Source: a virus (Duplodnaviria; Heunggongvirae; Uroviricota; Caudoviricetes). Taken from it: 18,673 nucleotides of DNA. Below are positions 904 to 15,556 of the stretch, in pieces. A program made the translations under genes and the position numbers. The first letter of the stretch is position 1. Each line of letters starts with the position of its first letter. Location: IMG/VR virus record IMGVR_UViG_2617270979_000006. One strand, 5' to 3'. Under the pieces are notes generated by a model, which saw only the letters and a program-made list of their open reading frames with translations, ran no database searches and had not been told where the DNA came from.

Positions 904-2295
904 TTATGCTTCATGTTGCTTTTTGAGATCGCTTCTAGCATAGCTCCACTCAATAATGTTGTCGGGTCGTTGCTGATCGAAAAGGATACGGGATTCAATA
1001 CCATTACCTAAAAAGCTGGTATTCCCATCTACGTAAGAAGCTATCCCTTGTGAACCAACACGAAGAATATTTTCTAATGGCTGCTTTGTTCTTGCTGCAT
1101 CGCTAAGGAGATATAAACCCGGGTACGTTTTGTTAGCACGGTGAAAAAAAAGTTCATTGTCAAAACACATGACGATGATTATTTGTCCCGACATGAGATC
1201 GGAGAGCATTTCAGTTGGCAGATGCAAACTCATAAATGGTCGAGACAAAGGGTCAAAGAATGAATCATTTATATTCACAACAGGGCTTTTTATACCGAGA
1301 CTATCCATCCATCCATTGAAGGCAACAAAGCCCATTTCAGAATCACGGTACATACCTAAGAACAAACATTCATCAATAGTATCAATTGCCCAATTTTTTC
1401 CTCCGCGAATAATCTCCCACATTTTAACTAAGCGGTGGGTATAAAATTCAGACGGATGATCTATCTCATTGATTTTAACTTTAGACTGATGAAAGTTGTC
1501 AAAGCCCTCGCCAGTATTAATCGCCTCCAGAACATTCATGCCACGAATGATTTGCCTTTTTATGCGATTAAATTGCTTAACATCATTATCAGGCATATTG
1601 TTAATGAAGTTTTCTTCAAAGTGCGGACATTCTGAGATAACAGAAAATTCAGCAGCTTCATAAAGCTCATTATTCTTTTCACCTGTTTTAACTTCCACGA
1701 GCTGGAAGCCATCCAGTAGATTAAAGGTGACTAAATCTCCCACATGAACAAATGTGCTCATGTCAGAGACAATCGCTACGGAGTGTTTGTCCTGGTTGAT
1801 AAGATCGGCTGCGACCATAGAATCAATTATGTTATCTTCTGATAGATTGTCATTGCTTGCATTAATAGGTAAACGCCGCAAACTAGAGTGTTCTTCATCA
1901 AGAATGCTCCAAATTATTGAGTCAATACAACGGCGAAGAATAAGAATTTCAAATTTTTTTAAACTTATTTCATCAATACACTTTTCTTTATTTTCTTTAT
2001 CCTTGTTTCGATGGTGCTCTTTTTTTTCAGTTTCCAATCTTTTTATATCTCTCAGCCGAATAATAATCTCAAAAGATATGATTTTTTGTGAGTCTTTCCA
2101 ATTTTTGAGACAGGTTTCATACTCTGCAAGAAAATCCTCATCATTGGAAGGTAGTTCTTGAATTGGATTCCCTCCCCTTATCATTTTGGCAAGTGCATGC
2201 ATTAAAGATACATAATGAGGTGATAAAATTGTCCAAAACTTCCTAAACGGTTTGTACTTTTCAAGAAAAGTTGACTCATCAGTATAATTCATCAT
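904..2295 (-). CDS. Uncharacterised 463-aa protein, downstream partner of the AbiH-like gene; central D-x14-E-V-K motif suggests a possible PD-(D/E)xK nuclease core
   Basis: Long ORF in visibly AT-rich DNA. Track start is TTG at 2301; the ATG at 2295 is preferred because GAGG lies 6 nt upstream. Lies 89 nt downstream of the AbiH-like gene on the same strand. Motif HVGDLVTFNLLDGFQLVEVK maps to 1687-1737. Lysine/glutamate-rich segment near the N-terminus. Confidence 0.7.
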   Translation of the reverse strand: MMNYTDESTFLEKYKPFRKFWTILSPHYVSLMHALAKMIRGGNPIQELPSNDEDFLAEYETCLKNWKDSQKIISFEIIIRLRDIKRLETEKKEHHRNKDKENKEKCIDEISLKKFEILILRRCIDSIIWSILDEEHSSLRRLPINASNDNLSEDNIIDSMVAADLINQDKHSVAIVSDMSTFVHVGDLVTFNLLDGFQLVEVKTGEKNNELYEAAEFSVISECPHFEENFINNMPDNDVKQFNRIKRQIIRGMNVLEAINTGEGFDNFHQSKVKINEIDHPSEFYTHRLVKMWEIIRGGKNWAIDTIDECLFLGMYRDSEMGFVAFNGWMDSLGIKSPVVNINDSFFDPLSRPFMSLHLPTEMLSDLMSGQIIIVMCFDNELFFHRANKTYPGLYLLSDAARTKQPLENILRVGSQGIASYVDGNTSFLGNGIESRILFDQQRPDNIIEWSYARSDLKKQHEA

Positions 2296-2384
2296 AACCA
2301 AACCTCATTCCTCTTATCTATTTTCCTCAAGGTATAAAATACCAGCCTTTTTTACATAATTATAGTTATAATATGAAGTCTCAT

Positions 2385-3254
2385 TCAGATATCTTCATAC
2401 TGTACGTAAGAAATATTTGAGCCTCTGATACCATAATCTTCTAAACTGCCTGATTTTTTCTCACCTCTATATAAAGCAACTATCCATCGAGCATTTTCTT
2501 GGATGCTTTTATTTATTTCAGTAAAGTATTCACCGTCAACTTCGGCGAGCGAGTGGCCTAAAACGATGACCTCGTCCACATTTTTAAGCGATGAGAAAAA
2601 AACGTTTTCTTCTTTAATTATGTCTTCGCTGGGCTTGAATGTATTACCGAAGTATTCGTTTATTCTGTCGTATGCCTCTGCTATTCTTGTATCTTGATCC
2701 GGTCCTATATATGGATTTAGTGACTTTTCCACCCTAAAACTATGACCAAGTATGAGATCGTCATCGTAACTACAATTGCCGTGAATATGTATGATTTGCT
2801 CGTCTGGAACGGCATAGATCTGCTGCAAGGTATTTGTATAATTAAATGAAAAATAGATGCTTTCTCTTGGTATGGGCGGGATGTATTGCTTAGGATTGTA
2901 AGCATCGGCTATGTTAATCCCTTTAACCCAATCAGCGAATTGCTCCTTCAAACGAGCTGACAGCATTTGTGTGATTTTATTTACTTCATATTGGTAATCG
3001 TGATGATAAGCATCGCTCCAATCATCGGTATTGTATGAAGCCAAAAATATCTCACTGTTTTGAAGGATAAGCTCATAATCAATTTCACCTAAAGCATTTT
3101 CTAACTCATTCCACTCGTCCCCAGCAGGAATGTATTCTTCTATCGCGTCATATAGATCTTGGTCATTTTTTTCTACATACGACTTAAAGTGCTTGTATCC
3201 TGTTGGTAAGCCATGACGCATGTCAAATCCATTTCCTATTATGTAAAGCCTCAT
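2385..3254 (-). CDS. AbiH-family abortive infection protein (289 aa)
   Basis: N-terminus MRLYIIGNGFDMRHGLPTGYKHF matches the hallmark IIGNGFD-x-HGL motif of the AbiH family (Pfam Bacteriophage abortive infection AbiH), with further FNYTNT, HIHG and LGHS motifs. Start moved from track position 3305 to the internal ATG at 3254, which has AAGGGA about 7 nt upstream. AT-rich codon usage. Confidence 0.75.
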   Translation of the reverse strand: MRLYIIGNGFDMRHGLPTGYKHFKSYVEKNDQDLYDAIEEYIPAGDEWNELENALGEIDYELILQNSEIFLASYNTDDWSDAYHHDYQYEVNKITQMLSARLKEQFADWVKGINIADAYNPKQYIPPIPRESIYFSFNYTNTLQQIYAVPDEQIIHIHGNCSYDDDLILGHSFRVEKSLNPYIGPDQDTRIAEAYDRINEYFGNTFKPSEDIIKEENVFFSSLKNVDEVIVLGHSLAEVDGEYFTEINKSIQENARWIVALYRGEKKSGSLEDYGIRGSNISYVQYEDI

Positions 3255-3357
3255 TGTTTTTCCCTTAGTCGAATTGTATAAAAATACTAACATGGCCTGC
3301 TCCACGTTGACTACTATCCCCTCCTTTGAGTAATGCCTTCATCAGATGTAACAACAT

Positions 3358-3654: not shown

Positions 3655-3812
3655 TTGATTTTATATTGGCGAGGTGACGTGAGTTAAGTAGAATTGCTGC
3701 GGGTGCTTGAGGCTATCTGCCTCAGGCATGAACACCAAAGGCAGATAGAGAAAAGCCCCAGTTAACATTACGCGTCCTGCAAGACGCTTAACATTAATCT
3801 GAGGCCAATTTC

Positions 3813-4025
3813 ATGCTAGACACATGTAGGTTAGCCTCTTACGTGCCGAAAGGCAAGGAGAAGCAGGCTATGAAGCAGCAAAAGGCGATGTTAATCGCCC
3901 TGATCGTCATCTGTTTAACCGTCATAGTGACGGCACTGGTAACGAGGAAAGACCTCTGCGAGGTACGAATCCGAACCGGCCAGACGGAGGTCGCTGTCTT
4001 CACAGCTTACGAACCTGAGGAGTAA
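3813..4025 (+). CDS. Mok-like leader reading frame, in-frame N-terminal extension of Hok
   Basis: MLDTCRLASYVPKGKEKQA precedes the Hok Met in the same frame, the same arrangement as E. coli MokC/HokC (MLNTCR...) as I recall it. Confidence 0.55.
   Translation: MLDTCRLASYVPKGKEKQAMKQQKAMLIALIVICLTVIVTALVTRKDLCEVRIRTGQTEVAVFTAYEPEE
3870..4025 (+). CDS. hokD: Hok/Gef family type I toxin (HokD/RelF-like, 51 aa)
   Basis: MKQQKAMLIALIVICLTVIVTALVTRKDLCEVRIRTGQTEVAVFTAYEPEE: single transmembrane helix plus conserved Hok C-terminus. AAGGAG lies 9 nt upstream of the ATG. Followed by a hairpin (4033-4054) and a terminator. Confidence 0.9.
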   Translation: MKQQKAMLIALIVICLTVIVTALVTRKDLCEVRIRTGQTEVAVFTAYEPEE

Positions 4026-6363: not shown

Positions 6364-6888
6364 TTATTGTTTAACCCATAATAGTTCATTGACATTGAAT
6401 CCCAACTTTTGAGCGGTACGCACATAGTCTGCTTTTACATTATCTGGAATAGTTTGGGTCCTTGCCAGAATCCATAGGTATTCTCTGTTCGGACCACTGA
6501 CAAGAGCATACTTATACTCATCATCCAGTTTGATTACATTATAGCCACCATAGAAGGGGCCAAAAAACGAAACTTTCAACGCTGCAGTTTTAGTATCTCC
6601 AGTAAAGTATGCTTTACCTTCGCTCTCGCTCCATTTGTTTTTCGTTGGATCGTATCCACGGTTAAGTACGCGAATCCCTCCGTCGTTCCGTTTTTCATAA
6701 GTAGCGCTGACCTGTTCCAGACCACGTTCGAACCAGTTCTCGAGGCGAGCTATTTCATACCATTTTCCGAGGTAGCGGTTGGCGTCAAAATTTGTAATCG
6801 GCTGCACACCTTTAGGTGGTGTCGGGGCCTTACATGCTATAAGAGTGAAAGAGAGTGCAATGCCAGTCAACACAGGCCATAACTTCAT
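6364..6888 (-). CDS. blc: Bacterial lipocalin Blc-like outer-membrane lipoprotein (174 aa)
   Basis: MKLWPVLTGIALSFTLIACKAPTPPKG: signal peptide with lipobox LIAC. Strong similarity to E. coli Blc as recalled (NFDANRYLGKWYEIARLENWFERGLE..., KAYFTGDTKTAALKVSFFGPFYGGYNVI). AGGA 7 nt upstream of the start. Confidence 0.85.
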   Translation of the reverse strand: MKLWPVLTGIALSFTLIACKAPTPPKGVQPITNFDANRYLGKWYEIARLENWFERGLEQVSATYEKRNDGGIRVLNRGYDPTKNKWSESEGKAYFTGDTKTAALKVSFFGPFYGGYNVIKLDDEYKYALVSGPNREYLWILARTQTIPDNVKADYVRTAQKLGFNVNELLWVKQ

Positions 6889-7080
6889 AATAAATCCTGT
6901 ACTTTTGATAGTTGAGAGTAAGTATGAAAGATAGATGAGTACGACCGATCACTTAAAGAACTTTCCTACTATATTAGGAATAGTCAATAACAGAAAAATT
7001 GTCAGTGATGAAGCCAGAAAGGCAATTTAGTCCGTGCACTACAAAGTTTATGTGTTAATGAATTAGTCAAGGGGGAGGAA

Positions 7081-8040
7081 ATGATAAAAAAACCTGTGAT
7101 TGGGATCAGCGGTTGTTTGGGCGGTTCTGCTGTTCGTTTTGATGGTGGTCACAAAAGAGATGACTTTTTAATGGACAAATTAGTGGAATGGGTAACATTC
7201 AGACCAGTATGTCCGGAAATGGCTATAGGGCTGCCAGTTCCGCGTCCTGCTCTACGACTTGTGCGCTCGAAGCAAGGAAATATACGGATGTGTTTCAGCC
7301 ACGACCAGAATGAGGATGTGACAGAGAGAATGACAGAGTTTAGTCGTTCTTATATGGACAAATTAAAGGATGTATCGGGGTTTGTGGTTTGTGCTAAATC
7401 TCCCAGCTGTGGCATGGAGCGCGTGCGTGTCTATGATGAAAATGGTAATCGAGGTCGTAAAGATGGAGTGGGACTATTTACGAGCACTTTGATGGAAAAG
7501 TTTTCCTGGCTACCGGTTGAGGAGGATGGGCGATTACATGATCCAGTGCTTCGTGAGAATTTTATTGAAAGAGTTTTTGCTTTGCATGAGCTCAATCACC
7601 TTTACAAGGAGAAATTATCAAGAAGAGAGTTATTAGCTTTTCATAGTCGTTATAAGCTTCAGTTGTTGGCGCATAGCCAGGCAGGCTATAAAGATATGGG
7701 ACCATTTGTGGCTGCAATACACGAGTGGGCGGACCTTGAATCATACTTTGAGGTGTATCGTGATAATCTGATGGCGATTCTCAGAAAACCAGCATCACGT
7801 AAAAATCACACGAATGTGCTGATGCATATACAGGGGTATTTTAGTAATTACTTAAGTACACGCCAGCGTAAAGAGTTGAGCGAGGTTATACTTAACTATC
7901 GCTTTGGCACATTGCCTCTTCTTGCGCCGTTGACTCTGCTGAAGCATTATCTGGGTGAGTATCCTAATGATTACTTGCTTACACAGAATTACTTCGATCC
8001 CTATCCGGAAGAACTGGCTCTAAGACTGAAGGTGAATTAA
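7081..8040 (+). CDS. TudS (DUF523) - DUF1722 fusion protein, RudS-like putative thiouridine desulfidase (319 aa)
   Basis: N-terminal domain carries the three conserved Cys expected for the TudS [4Fe-4S] site (GISGCLGG, RPVCPE, CAKSPSCG). C-terminal half resembles YbgA/DUF1722 (HSRYKLQLLAHSQ, HTNVLMHIQGYFS). Strong RBS GGGGGAGG. Confidence 0.75.
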   Translation: MIKKPVIGISGCLGGSAVRFDGGHKRDDFLMDKLVEWVTFRPVCPEMAIGLPVPRPALRLVRSKQGNIRMCFSHDQNEDVTERMTEFSRSYMDKLKDVSGFVVCAKSPSCGMERVRVYDENGNRGRKDGVGLFTSTLMEKFSWLPVEEDGRLHDPVLRENFIERVFALHELNHLYKEKLSRRELLAFHSRYKLQLLAHSQAGYKDMGPFVAAIHEWADLESYFEVYRDNLMAILRKPASRKNHTNVLMHIQGYFSNYLSTRQRKELSEVILNYRFGTLPLLAPLTLLKHYLGEYPNDYLLTQNYFDPYPEELALRLKVN

Positions 8041-8446
8041 CTGTATGCGATATCATCTGAAAGTGATGAGTTCCTGTATGCAGGATATTTACAATCGTAA
8101 AAACTACGCTATGATGCTCATAGTGTCAGTTTTTATAAAAATCCTGTTCACGCTAAAGAAAACATTGAGATGCAATTTAATGTTGGTAAACATACCAGCC
8201 CCAAAAGATTTTATTCAATCTGTTTTTATATGAAGATATTTCAAGTGAATATAAAGAGCATATAATATTATTATTGCACGCAGCTATTATAATATAACAG
8301 ATTAGTTTAATGATTTGTTTTTTGTGAGTTAAACACATGGTTTTATAGTTGTGATGCAATGAGATTTTCCTTATTGTTGAACTGGCGAATATTGATTTTC
8401 CACCTATACTTACCTGGTGTAACCCCAATGATATCAGGTGGATAAT

Positions 8447-9160
8447 ATGTCATACATATGTTCTATCATTTTGGTGTTGAACTCGTTTGGTGTCCGAATT
8501 GGTAAAGAAGATATTTTGTTTAAAAAAGGAAATGCTGTCCTCATTGAATACAATTTAAAAGATCTTTTTTCGTCAAATACAGATCATCTAATGATCGTAG
8601 ATGTTGAGGAGAAAACAGTTAATGATTTCTTTAAAAACTACACACTCTCACCTTTTTCTGTAAGAAGGTTTTATCCGTCATACTTGATAGTAGAATGTGA
8701 AGATTTTTCATTGTTAAAGAACTTGGTTGCATGCTTGAATTGTGATAGCAAAACCGTGGATGTAGTTAGAAATCAAATATCACTTGCATGTCTTGCTGTC
8801 TTATCTTCAGAGAAAATAGTGCAAAGTTTTTTGTTCGGAAGTCTTAATAACTTAGGTTGTAAAGTTAAGGCTATTATTCACTCGGATATCTCAGCGTCAT
8901 GGAGACTTTGTGATATATCTTCAAGATTATATATGAGCGAGAGTTTGTTAAAAAGAAAATTAAAAGACGAAGGATTATCGTTTAGTAAATTAATTCTTGA
9001 AGAACGAATGATGATGGCGCAAAGATTATTGATCTACAGTAACCATACTGTCGGCAAGGTGGCGGGAATATGCGGGTATGACAATGCATCATATTTTGTA
9101 AGTGTTTTTAGAGGATATTTTGGTGTGCCTCCGCACCAATATTTATCAAGATTTTCTTAG
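8447..9160 (+). CDS. AraC/XylS-family transcriptional regulator, AppY/GadX/YdeO-like (237 aa)
   Basis: C-terminal double HTH (SESLLKRKLKDEGLSFSKLILEERMMMAQRLL, GYDNASYFVSVFRGYFGVPPHQY). N-terminus MSYICSIILVLNSFGVRIG...FKKGNAVL parallels prophage-encoded AppY as recalled. AT-rich gene preceded by about 400 bp of AT-rich DNA. Confidence 0.8.
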   Translation: MSYICSIILVLNSFGVRIGKEDILFKKGNAVLIEYNLKDLFSSNTDHLMIVDVEEKTVNDFFKNYTLSPFSVRRFYPSYLIVECEDFSLLKNLVACLNCDSKTVDVVRNQISLACLAVLSSEKIVQSFLFGSLNNLGCKVKAIIHSDISASWRLCDISSRLYMSESLLKRKLKDEGLSFSKLILEERMMMAQRLLIYSNHTVGKVAGICGYDNASYFVSVFRGYFGVPPHQYLSRFS

Positions 9161-10906: not shown

Positions 10907-11269
10907 GGTAATATTAAATCGGAACATTTACATCGCGGAATGTAAAATTTAAATAAAAAGGACTCTTCCATGAGCCAAAATTCCTGAAATCTTAAGGGTA
11001 AGATAAAAGGTCTTAATCAGAATGACACGTTATTATTAATAAATAAAGCTATTCTTTCATTGCTGTGTTTTTCTTTACAAAAGTAATCCTTGCTATGGGT
11101 GGTTAATCATGCGTTAATGGTGTTCTGGTTTGTTACAAATTTATCTGAAGCAGTCATTGTTATAATTTTATTATTTGTACCTCTTGAGATTTCCTTGTTG
11201 GTTTTTCTCTCTGATATTTTTTTTCGGACCATTCTGCCCAAGGGCTAATTTCTTCAAAAGGTAATAATT
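10907..11269 (+). promoter_or_regulatory. Long AT-rich leader/promoter region of the csp gene (candidate cold-shock 5' UTR)
   Basis: About 360 nt of ORF-free AT-rich DNA with a perfect TATAAT near 11160 and TTGCTA-N18-TTAATG near 11085-11115. CspA-family genes are known to have long structured 5' UTRs. The transcription start is not determinable by eye. Confidence 0.4.
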
Positions 11270-11482
11270 ATGTCTAACAAAATGACTGGTTTAGTGAAAT
11301 AGTTTAACCCTGAAAAAGGTTTTGGTTTCATCACGCCGAAAGATGGCAGCAAAGATGTGTTTGTCCATTTCTCAGCAATTCAGAGCAACGATTTCAAAAC
11401 ATTAACTGAGAATCAGGAAGTTGAATTTGGTATTGAGAACGGACCTAAAGGTCCTGCCGCTGTTCATGTAGTGGCGCTTTGA
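11270..11482 (+). pseudogene. cspI: CspA-family cold-shock protein gene (CspI-like) interrupted by an in-frame amber codon at codon 11
   Basis: Reads [72 protein letters not shown]-stop. The TAG at 11300-11302 replaces the invariant Trp (TGG) of the WFN motif. No downstream in-frame Met, so no full-length product without suppression. Confidence 0.8.
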
Positions 11483-11681
11483 GGTAGACAATATTACAAA
11501 CCATATTCACTTTAGATGCCCGTGTTGTCATGGTTCCCAGTATAGAACATCATCTTTTGATGTTTCTGACATGAATCCTTTCGGGGCAAAATGTATCTTT
11601 TGTAAATCAATGATGATTACATTTGATAATATTTCACAATACTTAAATGCCAGCCGTCTGTCGTTGGATTTAAAAAAGTGA
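11472..11681 (+). pseudogene. Zinc-ribbon small ORF (YdfK/YnaE-like, by recollection) lacking a start codon for its conserved N-terminal part
   Basis: Open frame ...FRCPCCHGSQYRTSSFDVSDMNPFGAKCIFCKSMMITFDNISQYLNASRLSLDLKK with two Cys pairs (CPCC, CIFC). No ATG/GTG/TTG between the upstream stop (11469-11471) and the internal ATG at 11571. Confidence 0.35.
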
Positions 11682-11686
11682 AAATG

Positions 11687-11709
11687 AAGGCTCCTTCGGG
11701 AGCTTTTTT
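11687..11709 (+). terminator. Intrinsic terminator after the csp / zinc-ribbon unit
   Basis: Stem aaggctcc / ggagcttt (one G.U) with UUCG tetraloop, followed by a T run. Confidence 0.6.
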
Positions 11710-11753
11710 GCTTGGTATCTATTCGATGGATACTCACATACTACGGTAACATC

Positions 11754-13930: not shown

Positions 13931-15556
13931 ATGGGTTTTTCATCAGCCCGAAATTTGGGAAGGGACATATCGGCAGGATTTTCCCCACCACGTCGCATGC
14001 CGATTTCGGAGGCTGTTAAAAAATTCATGCGTGTTCCCAAGGGGGCTGGTAACTCGGTGCCATGGGATCCTGAACTGACACCCTACATCATTGAGCCCAT
14101 GAACTGCCTGGCATCGCGTGAATACGATGCGGTGATTTTTGTTGGTCCTGCGCGAACAGGGAAGACCATTGGTCTGATCGATGGATGGATTGTCTATACC
14201 ATCGTTTGCGATCCTTCGGACATGCTCGTTGTGCAGATGACCGAAGATAAGGCCCGCGAGCATTCTAAAAAGCGCCTCGACAGAACGTTCAGAAGCAGTG
14301 CGGCGGTAAAGAAAAGAATGAGTCCACGTCGTAACGACAATAATGTCCATGATAAGACGTTCAGGGATGGCTCGTTCCTTAAAATTGGTTGGCCCTCGGT
14401 CAACATTATGTCGTCGTCGGATTACCGGTTTGTCGCCTTAACCGATTACGACCGTTTTCCGGAGAATATCGACAGCGAGGGTGATGGTTTCTCCCTGGCC
14501 TCAAAACGTACCACCACATTTATGTCCGCCGCGATGACTCTGGTGGAGAGCTCGCCGGGACGTGACATCTGCGACAGCAAATGGCGACGTAAGTCGCCTC
14601 ATGAAGCGCCACCGACGACTGGTATTCTTTCCCTTTACAATCGTGGTGACCGCCGCCGCTGGTACTGGCCATGTCCGCACTGCGGTGAATATTTTCAGCC
14701 AGCTATGGATGCCATGACCGGCTACCGTAATGAACCGGATCCCTTTAAAGCCAGTGAGGCGGCGTATCTACTTTGCCCACACTGCAGCGGCATTATCACT
14801 GCGGAGAAAAAGCGTGAGCTCAATAGTGCAGGAGTCTGGTTGCGTGAAGGTCAGGTCATTGATCGTAACGGCAACGTTTCCGGTGAACCGCGCCGCTCCC
14901 GTAATGGCAGCAAGGATAAGGAACGCGAGCTTACCATTCAGCCAGGCATTATTTACGATGATCTGAAACCCGGCGAAGAAATCGGAATGGTGAAGTCGGA
15001 TCGCCCAAATCCTAACCTTGAAACTTTTCGTAATGGTCAGTTGCGTGCCGTGGCGGCGGGCAGTCGTCTGAGTTTTTCCAGTACAGCGCGCAACTATAAC
15101 GGCACTTACAGCGCCCAGCGTCAGGAGCTGGTTGAATCCACTGATGGCTACCTGATCCTGCAGGACTGGTTTATTGGTGCCGTCACCCGTCCGATGTATC
15201 GTGCCTGGCTGAAACAGGCTGTGGCATCCGGTGTTATCAGGCTACCCCGCGATCTTGACCTTTCTTCACTGTATACCGCGGTGTATTCCGGACCGGTGAT
15301 GCCGTGGATTGACCCTGTTAAGGAGGCTGAGGCCTGGAAAATCCAGATTCGTGGTGGAGCGGCGACAGAATCAGACTGGGTACGTGCTGGTGGTCGTAAT
15401 CCGGATGATGTCAAACGTCGGCGCAAGGCCGAAATTGATGAAAACCGCAAGCTGGATCTGGTATTTGATACCGATCCGGCCAGTGATAAAGGAGGCAGCA
15501 GTGCCGCAACGAAACGACAGGAGCCGCAGCACACCGACGACCAGTCCGAAGAATAA
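13931..15556 (+). CDS. Terminase large subunit GpA-family ATPase domain, with a C-terminal portion that looks portal-like (possible in-frame terL::portal fusion)
   Basis: Walker A VIFVGPARTGKT; GpA-type zinc-finger region WYWPCPHCGEYF...LLCPHCSGI, collinear with lambda gpA N-terminal half as recalled. C-terminal about 200 aa (SFSSTARNYNGTYSAQ...PWIDPVKEAEAWKI...) lacks nuclease motifs and resembles lambda-type portal C-termini. RBS GGAGG. Confidence 0.7.
   Translation: MGFSSARNLGRDISAGFSPPRRMPISEAVKKFMRVPKGAGNSVPWDPELTPYIIEPMNCLASREYDAVIFVGPARTGKTIGLIDGWIVYTIVCDPSDMLVVQMTEDKAREHSKKRLDRTFRSSAAVKKRMSPRRNDNNVHDKTFRDGSFLKIGWPSVNIMSSSDYRFVALTDYDRFPENIDSEGDGFSLASKRTTTFMSAAMTLVESSPGRDICDSKWRRKSPHEAPPTTGILSLYNRGDRRRWYWPCPHCGEYFQPAMDAMTGYRNEPDPFKASEAAYLLCPHCSGIITAEKKRELNSAGVWLREGQVIDRNGNVSGEPRRSRNGSKDKERELTIQPGIIYDDLKPGEEIGMVKSDRPNPNLETFRNGQLRAVAAGSRLSFSSTARNYNGTYSAQRQELVESTDGYLILQDWFIGAVTRPMYRAWLKQAVASGVIRLPRDLDLSSLYTAVYSGPVMPWIDPVKEAEAWKIQIRGGAATESDWVRAGGRNPDDVKRRRKAEIDENRKLDLVFDTDPASDKGGSSAATKRQEPQHTDDQSEE

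Follow-up and report, generated by a model that had tools for sequence, protein, structure and literature searches.

Introduction

The cold-shock gene cspI of Escherichia coli (CspI, b1552, WP_000066495.1) is located in the Qin cryptic prophage and is one of nine csp paralogues. According to the passage of PMC4956666 that cites Xia et al. (2001), four csp genes have to be deleted before the cells become cold-sensitive. On the other hand, a K-12 cspI knockout loses long-term stationary-phase competitions (PMC7406224). The leader of cspI was recently characterised as an RNA thermometer (PMC13271884).

In this work we analysed one stretch of viral DNA of 18,673 nucleotides (IMG/VR record IMGVR_UViG_2617270979_000006), which is called the window below and which carries a cspI gene. 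When compared with E. coli cspI, the gene in the window has the same 69 out of 70 codons and the same DNA except for 1 base, and both are found in the gene order rzpQ-cspI-ynfQ-ynfR-ynfN-gnsB. The difference is at codon 11, which is TGG in E. coli cspI whereas it is TAG in the window, and so the full-length protein is not encoded. We describe the locus and its distribution, and then weigh the explanations of the amber codon.

Results

The cspI locus

The features of the locus are collected in Table 1. Translation of the window identified the gene as cspI in a Qin-type cryptic prophage, and RefSeq names the homologous gene cspI in every close relative. Once Trp11 is restored, the 70-aa product is an exact match to CspI of E. 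coli, and it scores 108.4 bits (E = 1.6e-31) against the Pfam CSD family PF00313. Both RNP1 (K-G-F-G-F-I) and RNP2 (V-F-V-H-F) are encoded in frame downstream of the TAG. A sequence-only reading of the window had described a 70-codon ORF of the CspA family with TAG at codon 11 by a single TGG to TAG change, and this was confirmed by the translation and the 1-base difference. The same reading had placed the stop at the invariant Trp of the RNA-binding motif, which holds in part. When aligned to the solved structures, Trp11 (in K-W-F-N) is conserved in CspA, CspC and CspE, but it is located in strand beta1, upstream of both RNP1 and RNP2, and is inside neither of the two named motifs as they are defined in PMC7825780 (RNP1 as [YF]-G-F-I). 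The unbroken frame for a complete five-strand beta-barrel is absent at the cspI locus, in which the stop falls at codon 11. Judged from its sequence, the locus is a pseudogene allele and not a functional member of the CspA family.

Table 1. Coordinates of the features at the cspI locus of the window.
Feature	Position	Strand	Evidence or remark
cspI 5' untranslated leader (cspA-type thermoregulator), same as wild type	11124..11269	+	Rfam RF01766; no difference from E308
cspI coding region, 70 codons + TGA, broken at codon 11	11270..11482	+	Translation; cspI annotation in all close relatives; Pfam CSD with Trp restored
Amber TAG for TGG (Trp11); derived base A at 11301; +4 base T	11300..11302	+	Sequence, alignment, SNP list
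Residual in-frame GTG ORF, 41 aa, gene-finder call (KDZ42318.1, KDZ46324.1)	11357..11482	+	Lacks beta1, beta2 and RNP1; no Shine-Dalgarno
ynfQ, YmcF-like small protein, 62 aa, ATT start	11493..11681	+	RefSeq annotation of relatives; Pfam PF23641, 109.9 bits; identical to E308
Hairpin GCTCCTTCGGGAGC followed by TTTTTT; overlaps 21-codon ynfR	11690..11709	+	Sequence; hairpin scan 11690-11703 (listed on - strand); ynfR annotation

The surroundings of the amber codon were compared with the available E. coli records. Over positions 11100-11720 (621 bp, including the promoter, leader, cspI, ynfQ and hairpin), there is 1 mismatch (99.8% identity) to the best of the 2,148 matching records, and both the alignment and the SNP list place this sole mismatch at 11301, where the window has A and the record has G. 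The comparison with strain E308 covers a gap-free colinear block of 12,978 bp with 25 SNPs. The SNP in cspI is the only one to create a stop; among the annotated genes compared there, the other 18 are all still open.

The consequence of the substitution for RNA folding was also evaluated. The Rfam cspA model flags 11301 as a broken or non-canonical pair. In the ViennaRNA calculations at 37 C and 15 C, the same position is mostly unpaired in the wild type (P <= 0.45), and the G to A change alters the minimum free energy by 0.4-1.4 kcal/mol. Since the predicted folding effect is negligible, an RNA-structure rationale for the change was rejected, and no RNA-level rationale is needed.

The Rfam family RF01766 (cspA thermoregulator) matches 11124-11509 with 107.9 bits, the gathering score being 78. 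The match spans the whole model but for the terminator hairpin at its 3' end, which is deleted. No terminator was found directly after cspI, and the nearest hairpin with a T-run on the + strand comes after ynfQ. The claim that the promoter, leader and terminator are all intact can therefore be kept for the promoter and leader, which are wild type, but not for a terminator directly 3' of cspI, the hairpin after ynfQ being the unchanged one. From its sequence, GCTCCTTCGGGAGC-TTTTTT is likely to be the intrinsic terminator of a cspI-ynfQ transcript. The 21-codon ORF ynfR (11684-11749) has coding sequence inside this likely terminator (11690-11709).

ynfQ is probably co-transcribed with cspI. It starts 10 bases past the cspI stop, and a GAGG, the likely Shine-Dalgarno sequence, overlaps the TGA of cspI. 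This spacing and overlap suggest that the translation of ynfQ is coupled to that of cspI. The amber codon would abolish such a coupling, and it is possible that the lost upstream translation alters the expression of the closely following gene. In the 190 nt that go untranslated, the C/G ratio is 0.76, with G in excess over C, and the stretch does not resemble a site of Rho loading; strong Rho-dependent polarity on ynfQ is not predicted because this stretch is neither C-rich nor G-poor. The ATT start codon given for ynfQ in RefSeq is of a rare type.

The residual ORF downstream of the TAG was considered as well. The GTG at 11357 is the only in-frame restart, no in-frame start with a Shine-Dalgarno sequence was found downstream of the TAG, and the out-of-frame ORFs at cspI have at most 27 aa. 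The GTG-start fragment of 41 aa is probably not a functional product. This residue of the amber allele is already held in GenBank as a 41-aa "cold shock-like protein CspG", and the remnant is still flagged as PF00313 in the protein collection. The entry should be annotated as a cspI pseudogene.

Carriers of the allele

Contigs with the amber allele were traced by looking up the 41-aa residual ORF, and three contigs were found. JNRS01000016.1 (GCA_000704805.1; E. coli 3_020_07_S4_C2) matches the window, with a shift of one base, at each of the 17,317 positions compared, and it is the source of the window. JNRT01000042.1 (GCA_000704825.1; isolate 3_020_07_S4_C3) has the same TAG with identical flanks. 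From Table S1 of Richter et al. 2018 (PMC6222053), S4_C2 and S4_C3 are two colonies from one 6-month stool of one Tanzanian infant, and both belong to ST5617, phylogroup B1, O131:H8. They have different sample ids (SRS568247 and SRS568235), and their assemblies are of 5,260,928 and 5,298,396 bp in 191 and 162 contigs. The amber-bearing contigs also differ in structure, with lengths of 127,199 bp and 24,777 bp and opposite orientations. For both isolates, 100-bp reads from a HiSeq 2000 were assembled with MaSuRCA. The two isolates, which share one stool and one sequencing centre, establish the base call as real, and not the persistence or spread of the allele.

A metagenome scaffold of 520 bp (ENA ERZ28666879 scaffold_20857) was rejected as a third amber carrier, since unrelated sequence takes the place of the first 29 codons of its cspI, up to a junction exactly at the equivalent of the GTG at 11357. 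The 3' end of the scaffold also diverges, after ynfR. This scaffold is probably chimeric or rearranged, and the same 41-aa call is a coincidence. Another contig, JAGZPX010000007.1, is labelled as a Veillonella parvula MAG and includes an E. coli cspI locus of the wild-type form, which shares about 96% identity with the window; the contig is almost certainly a binning contaminant.

The distribution of the allele was then evaluated with short exact sequences. The cspI locus is present in 2,147 of the 5,426 complete E. coli genomes. The 61-mer with TAG has 0 exact matches in the 2,140 cspI-carrying genomes among them, while its wild-type counterpart with TGG matches at least 2,063 records at 100% identity. 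A 34-mer centred on the TAG, which cannot seed on wild-type DNA, also has 0 matches in the 5,426 complete genomes. The exact 44-mer with TAG is absent from the contigs of species-representative genomes, the JGI metagenome contigs and the IMG/VR viral contigs; as a positive control, the pattern was given an R at the variable position, and it then recovered five wild-type loci. Only the source assembly and the sister isolate were found to carry the amber allele.

When compared with the wild type, no second lesion was found in cspI or its leader, and the amber allele is taken to be very young for this reason. As judged from these searches, it is derived and private to one clone. The sequence-only reading had proposed a comparison with related strains and had offered a very recent pseudogene as one of its explanations. 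The comparison shows that the relatives carry TGG, and the explanation is well borne out by a single derived G to A change, with no other change in the gene, the leader or the 621-bp flank, in one clone only. The change is derived and disabling, it is absent from the close relatives, and it is accompanied by no compensating feature, as is expected of a recent pseudogene.

Prophage context

Gene content and profile matches identify the window as the late region of a Qin-type cryptic lambdoid prophage. The gene order starts with hok/sok (hokD), ydfU and antiterminator Q. It continues with three cargo genes (lipocalin, YbgA-family and AraC-family), the holin essQ, ydfR, the lysozyme rrrQ and rzpQ, and it ends with cspI, ynfQ, ynfR, ynfN, gnsB, the small terminase, a truncated terminase-portal fusion and ydfJ.

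Several other features of the window are worth recording. A complete hok/sok type I toxin-antitoxin locus lies at 3701-4025, with an Rfam sok match of 119.9 bits at 3701-3875; hokD occupies 3870-4025 and is overlapped by a mok-like frame of 70 codons from 3813. On the - strand there is an AbiH abortive-infection gene at 2385-3293 (Pfam 233 bits; PADLOC AbiH), adjoined by an intact ORF of 465 aa at 904-2301 with no Pfam or PADLOC match. The two may form a two-gene defence cassette in the prophage. In strain E308, the region matching 904-3293 is broken by IS1. The three cargo genes, which are not of phage type, lie at 6364-9160 between antiterminator Q and the holin. They encode a lipocalin (- strand), a YbgA-family protein (2-thiouracil desulfurase + DUF1722) and an AraC-family regulator. 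Morons under late transcription are usually found at this site. At 13931-15556, an ORF of 541 aa has a terminase large-subunit ATPase domain fused to a C-terminal fragment of a lambda-family portal protein. This fusion is a deletion scar, and the prophage is defective, with its structural genes lost. When compared with E308, the window is also without the segment of tape-measure, tfaQ and pinQ.

Discussion

We consider that the TAG in cspI represents a genuine and very recent loss-of-function allele of a cold-inducible RNA/ssDNA chaperone gene of the CspA family in a Qin-type cryptic prophage, and from the sequence comparisons we give this reading a probability of about 0.88. A single G to A transition, in the ancestor of one clone of E. 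coli (ST5617, B1, O131:H8; Tanzanian infant), would have converted TGG (Trp11) to TAG. Transcription and the thermosensing leader appear unchanged, so that the cspI mRNA is presumably still made and cold-induced. From the coding sequence, ribosomes would stop after the decapeptide MSNKMTGLVK, and functional CspI would be absent save for a trace of near-cognate read-through. The loss would be tolerated because cspI is an accessory gene and because, according to the literature, the nine csp paralogues are partly redundant. It is perhaps not fully neutral, since the K-12 knockout loses stationary-phase competitions, and the amber allele may be mildly deleterious and transient rather than strictly neutral.

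The explanations competing with a recent loss of function concern the base call, the rescue of the product and a benefit from its loss. A sequencing or assembly error, with G as the true base, was another explanation offered by the sequence-only reading, and a single-base difference in a draft Illumina assembly is where such an error might be sought. It is very unlikely because two independent libraries and assemblies both call A, in isolates whose contig structures and sample ids differ, and the site at 11300-11302 is outside any homopolymer or repeat. A G at 11301 on resequencing had been named as the result that would overturn the original observation. The separately sequenced sister colony (JNRT01000042.1) has A at this base as well, and the error explanation is effectively refuted. 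Alternatively, cspI may be functional by amber suppression, either through a host tRNA of the supE, supF or supD type, chromosomal or mobile, or through enough read-through, with Gln, Tyr, Ser, Lys or Trp at position 11. In its favour, the ORF past the TAG is fully intact and the leader is wild type, and insertion of the near-cognate Q, Y, W, K and E at UAG is documented in E. coli, mainly in RF1-deficient strains (PMC4333366). However, an intact downstream ORF is expected of any very young nonsense allele and so carries no weight, and there are no tRNA genes in the 18.7-kb window. The stop tetranucleotide is UAG-U; in E. coli, a U at +4 is linked to lower read-through, and suppression is least efficient in this context (PMC5289835). 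Neither a context favouring read-through nor conservation of the TAG among relatives was found, the +4 base being U and the TAG being in no other genome. Moreover, TAG is also the stop codon of four other genes in the window, which a strong suppressor host would extend. Suppressor tRNAs are uncommon in natural isolates. Trp11 contributes to the aromatic nucleic-acid-binding surface, and its replacement by a non-aromatic residue would weaken binding. Taking these points together, we regard a functional cspI through suppression as very improbable.

The remaining possibility is that the knock-out is adaptive or regulatory, in that the loss of CspI, or a change in the expression of ynfQ and ynfR through the lost translation of cspI, was selected in the gut. 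Two of three colonies picked from one stool belong to the clone, which speaks for its abundance, but both colonies may be siblings of whatever clone dominated. Some translational coupling is plausible in view of the position of ynfQ and its likely Shine-Dalgarno sequence; against this, the base composition of the untranslated stretch predicts no strong Rho polarity. In addition, the allele occurred once and did not recur in the 2,140 other genomes, and in the sole competition assay available the K-12 cspI knockout was at a disadvantage (PMC7406224). There is no sign that the amber allele, which arose once and did not recur, was selected, and we consider an adaptive loss improbable. More speculative forms of these two ideas can also be imagined. 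A Trp11-substituted CspI might be made at a reduced and tunable level by means of an unrecognised natural suppressor of amber codons, encoded for instance by a plasmid or prophage, or of UAG read-through raised in the cold, or the nonsense codon might have been selected for uncoupling ynfQ and ynfR from the translation of cspI; we regard these as a long shot. Functional suppression and an adaptive role each keep only a slight residual probability.

As a recent loss-of-function allele, the amber cspI documents the loss of an accessory cold-shock paralogue in commensal E. coli that is private to a clone and on the scale of a single host. It provides one small data point on gene decay in cryptic prophages and on csp redundancy.

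Two kinds of known systems can be compared with the allele. The classical amber alleles rescued by supE or supF in laboratory strains likewise have TGG changed to TAG in an otherwise intact gene. In contrast, the host of the window is a natural isolate that shows no sign of a suppressor, and with U at +4 the context is a poor one for suppression. On the other hand, the ordinary nonsense pseudogenes in the decaying cryptic prophages of E. coli and Shigella show the same single-step loss of a non-essential cargo gene. When compared with them, the cspI of the window is extremely young, with no second lesion and with its occurrence in one clone in one host. No new mechanism is involved, and in the amber cspI a prophage gene that is both known and redundant has become a young pseudogene of the ordinary kind.
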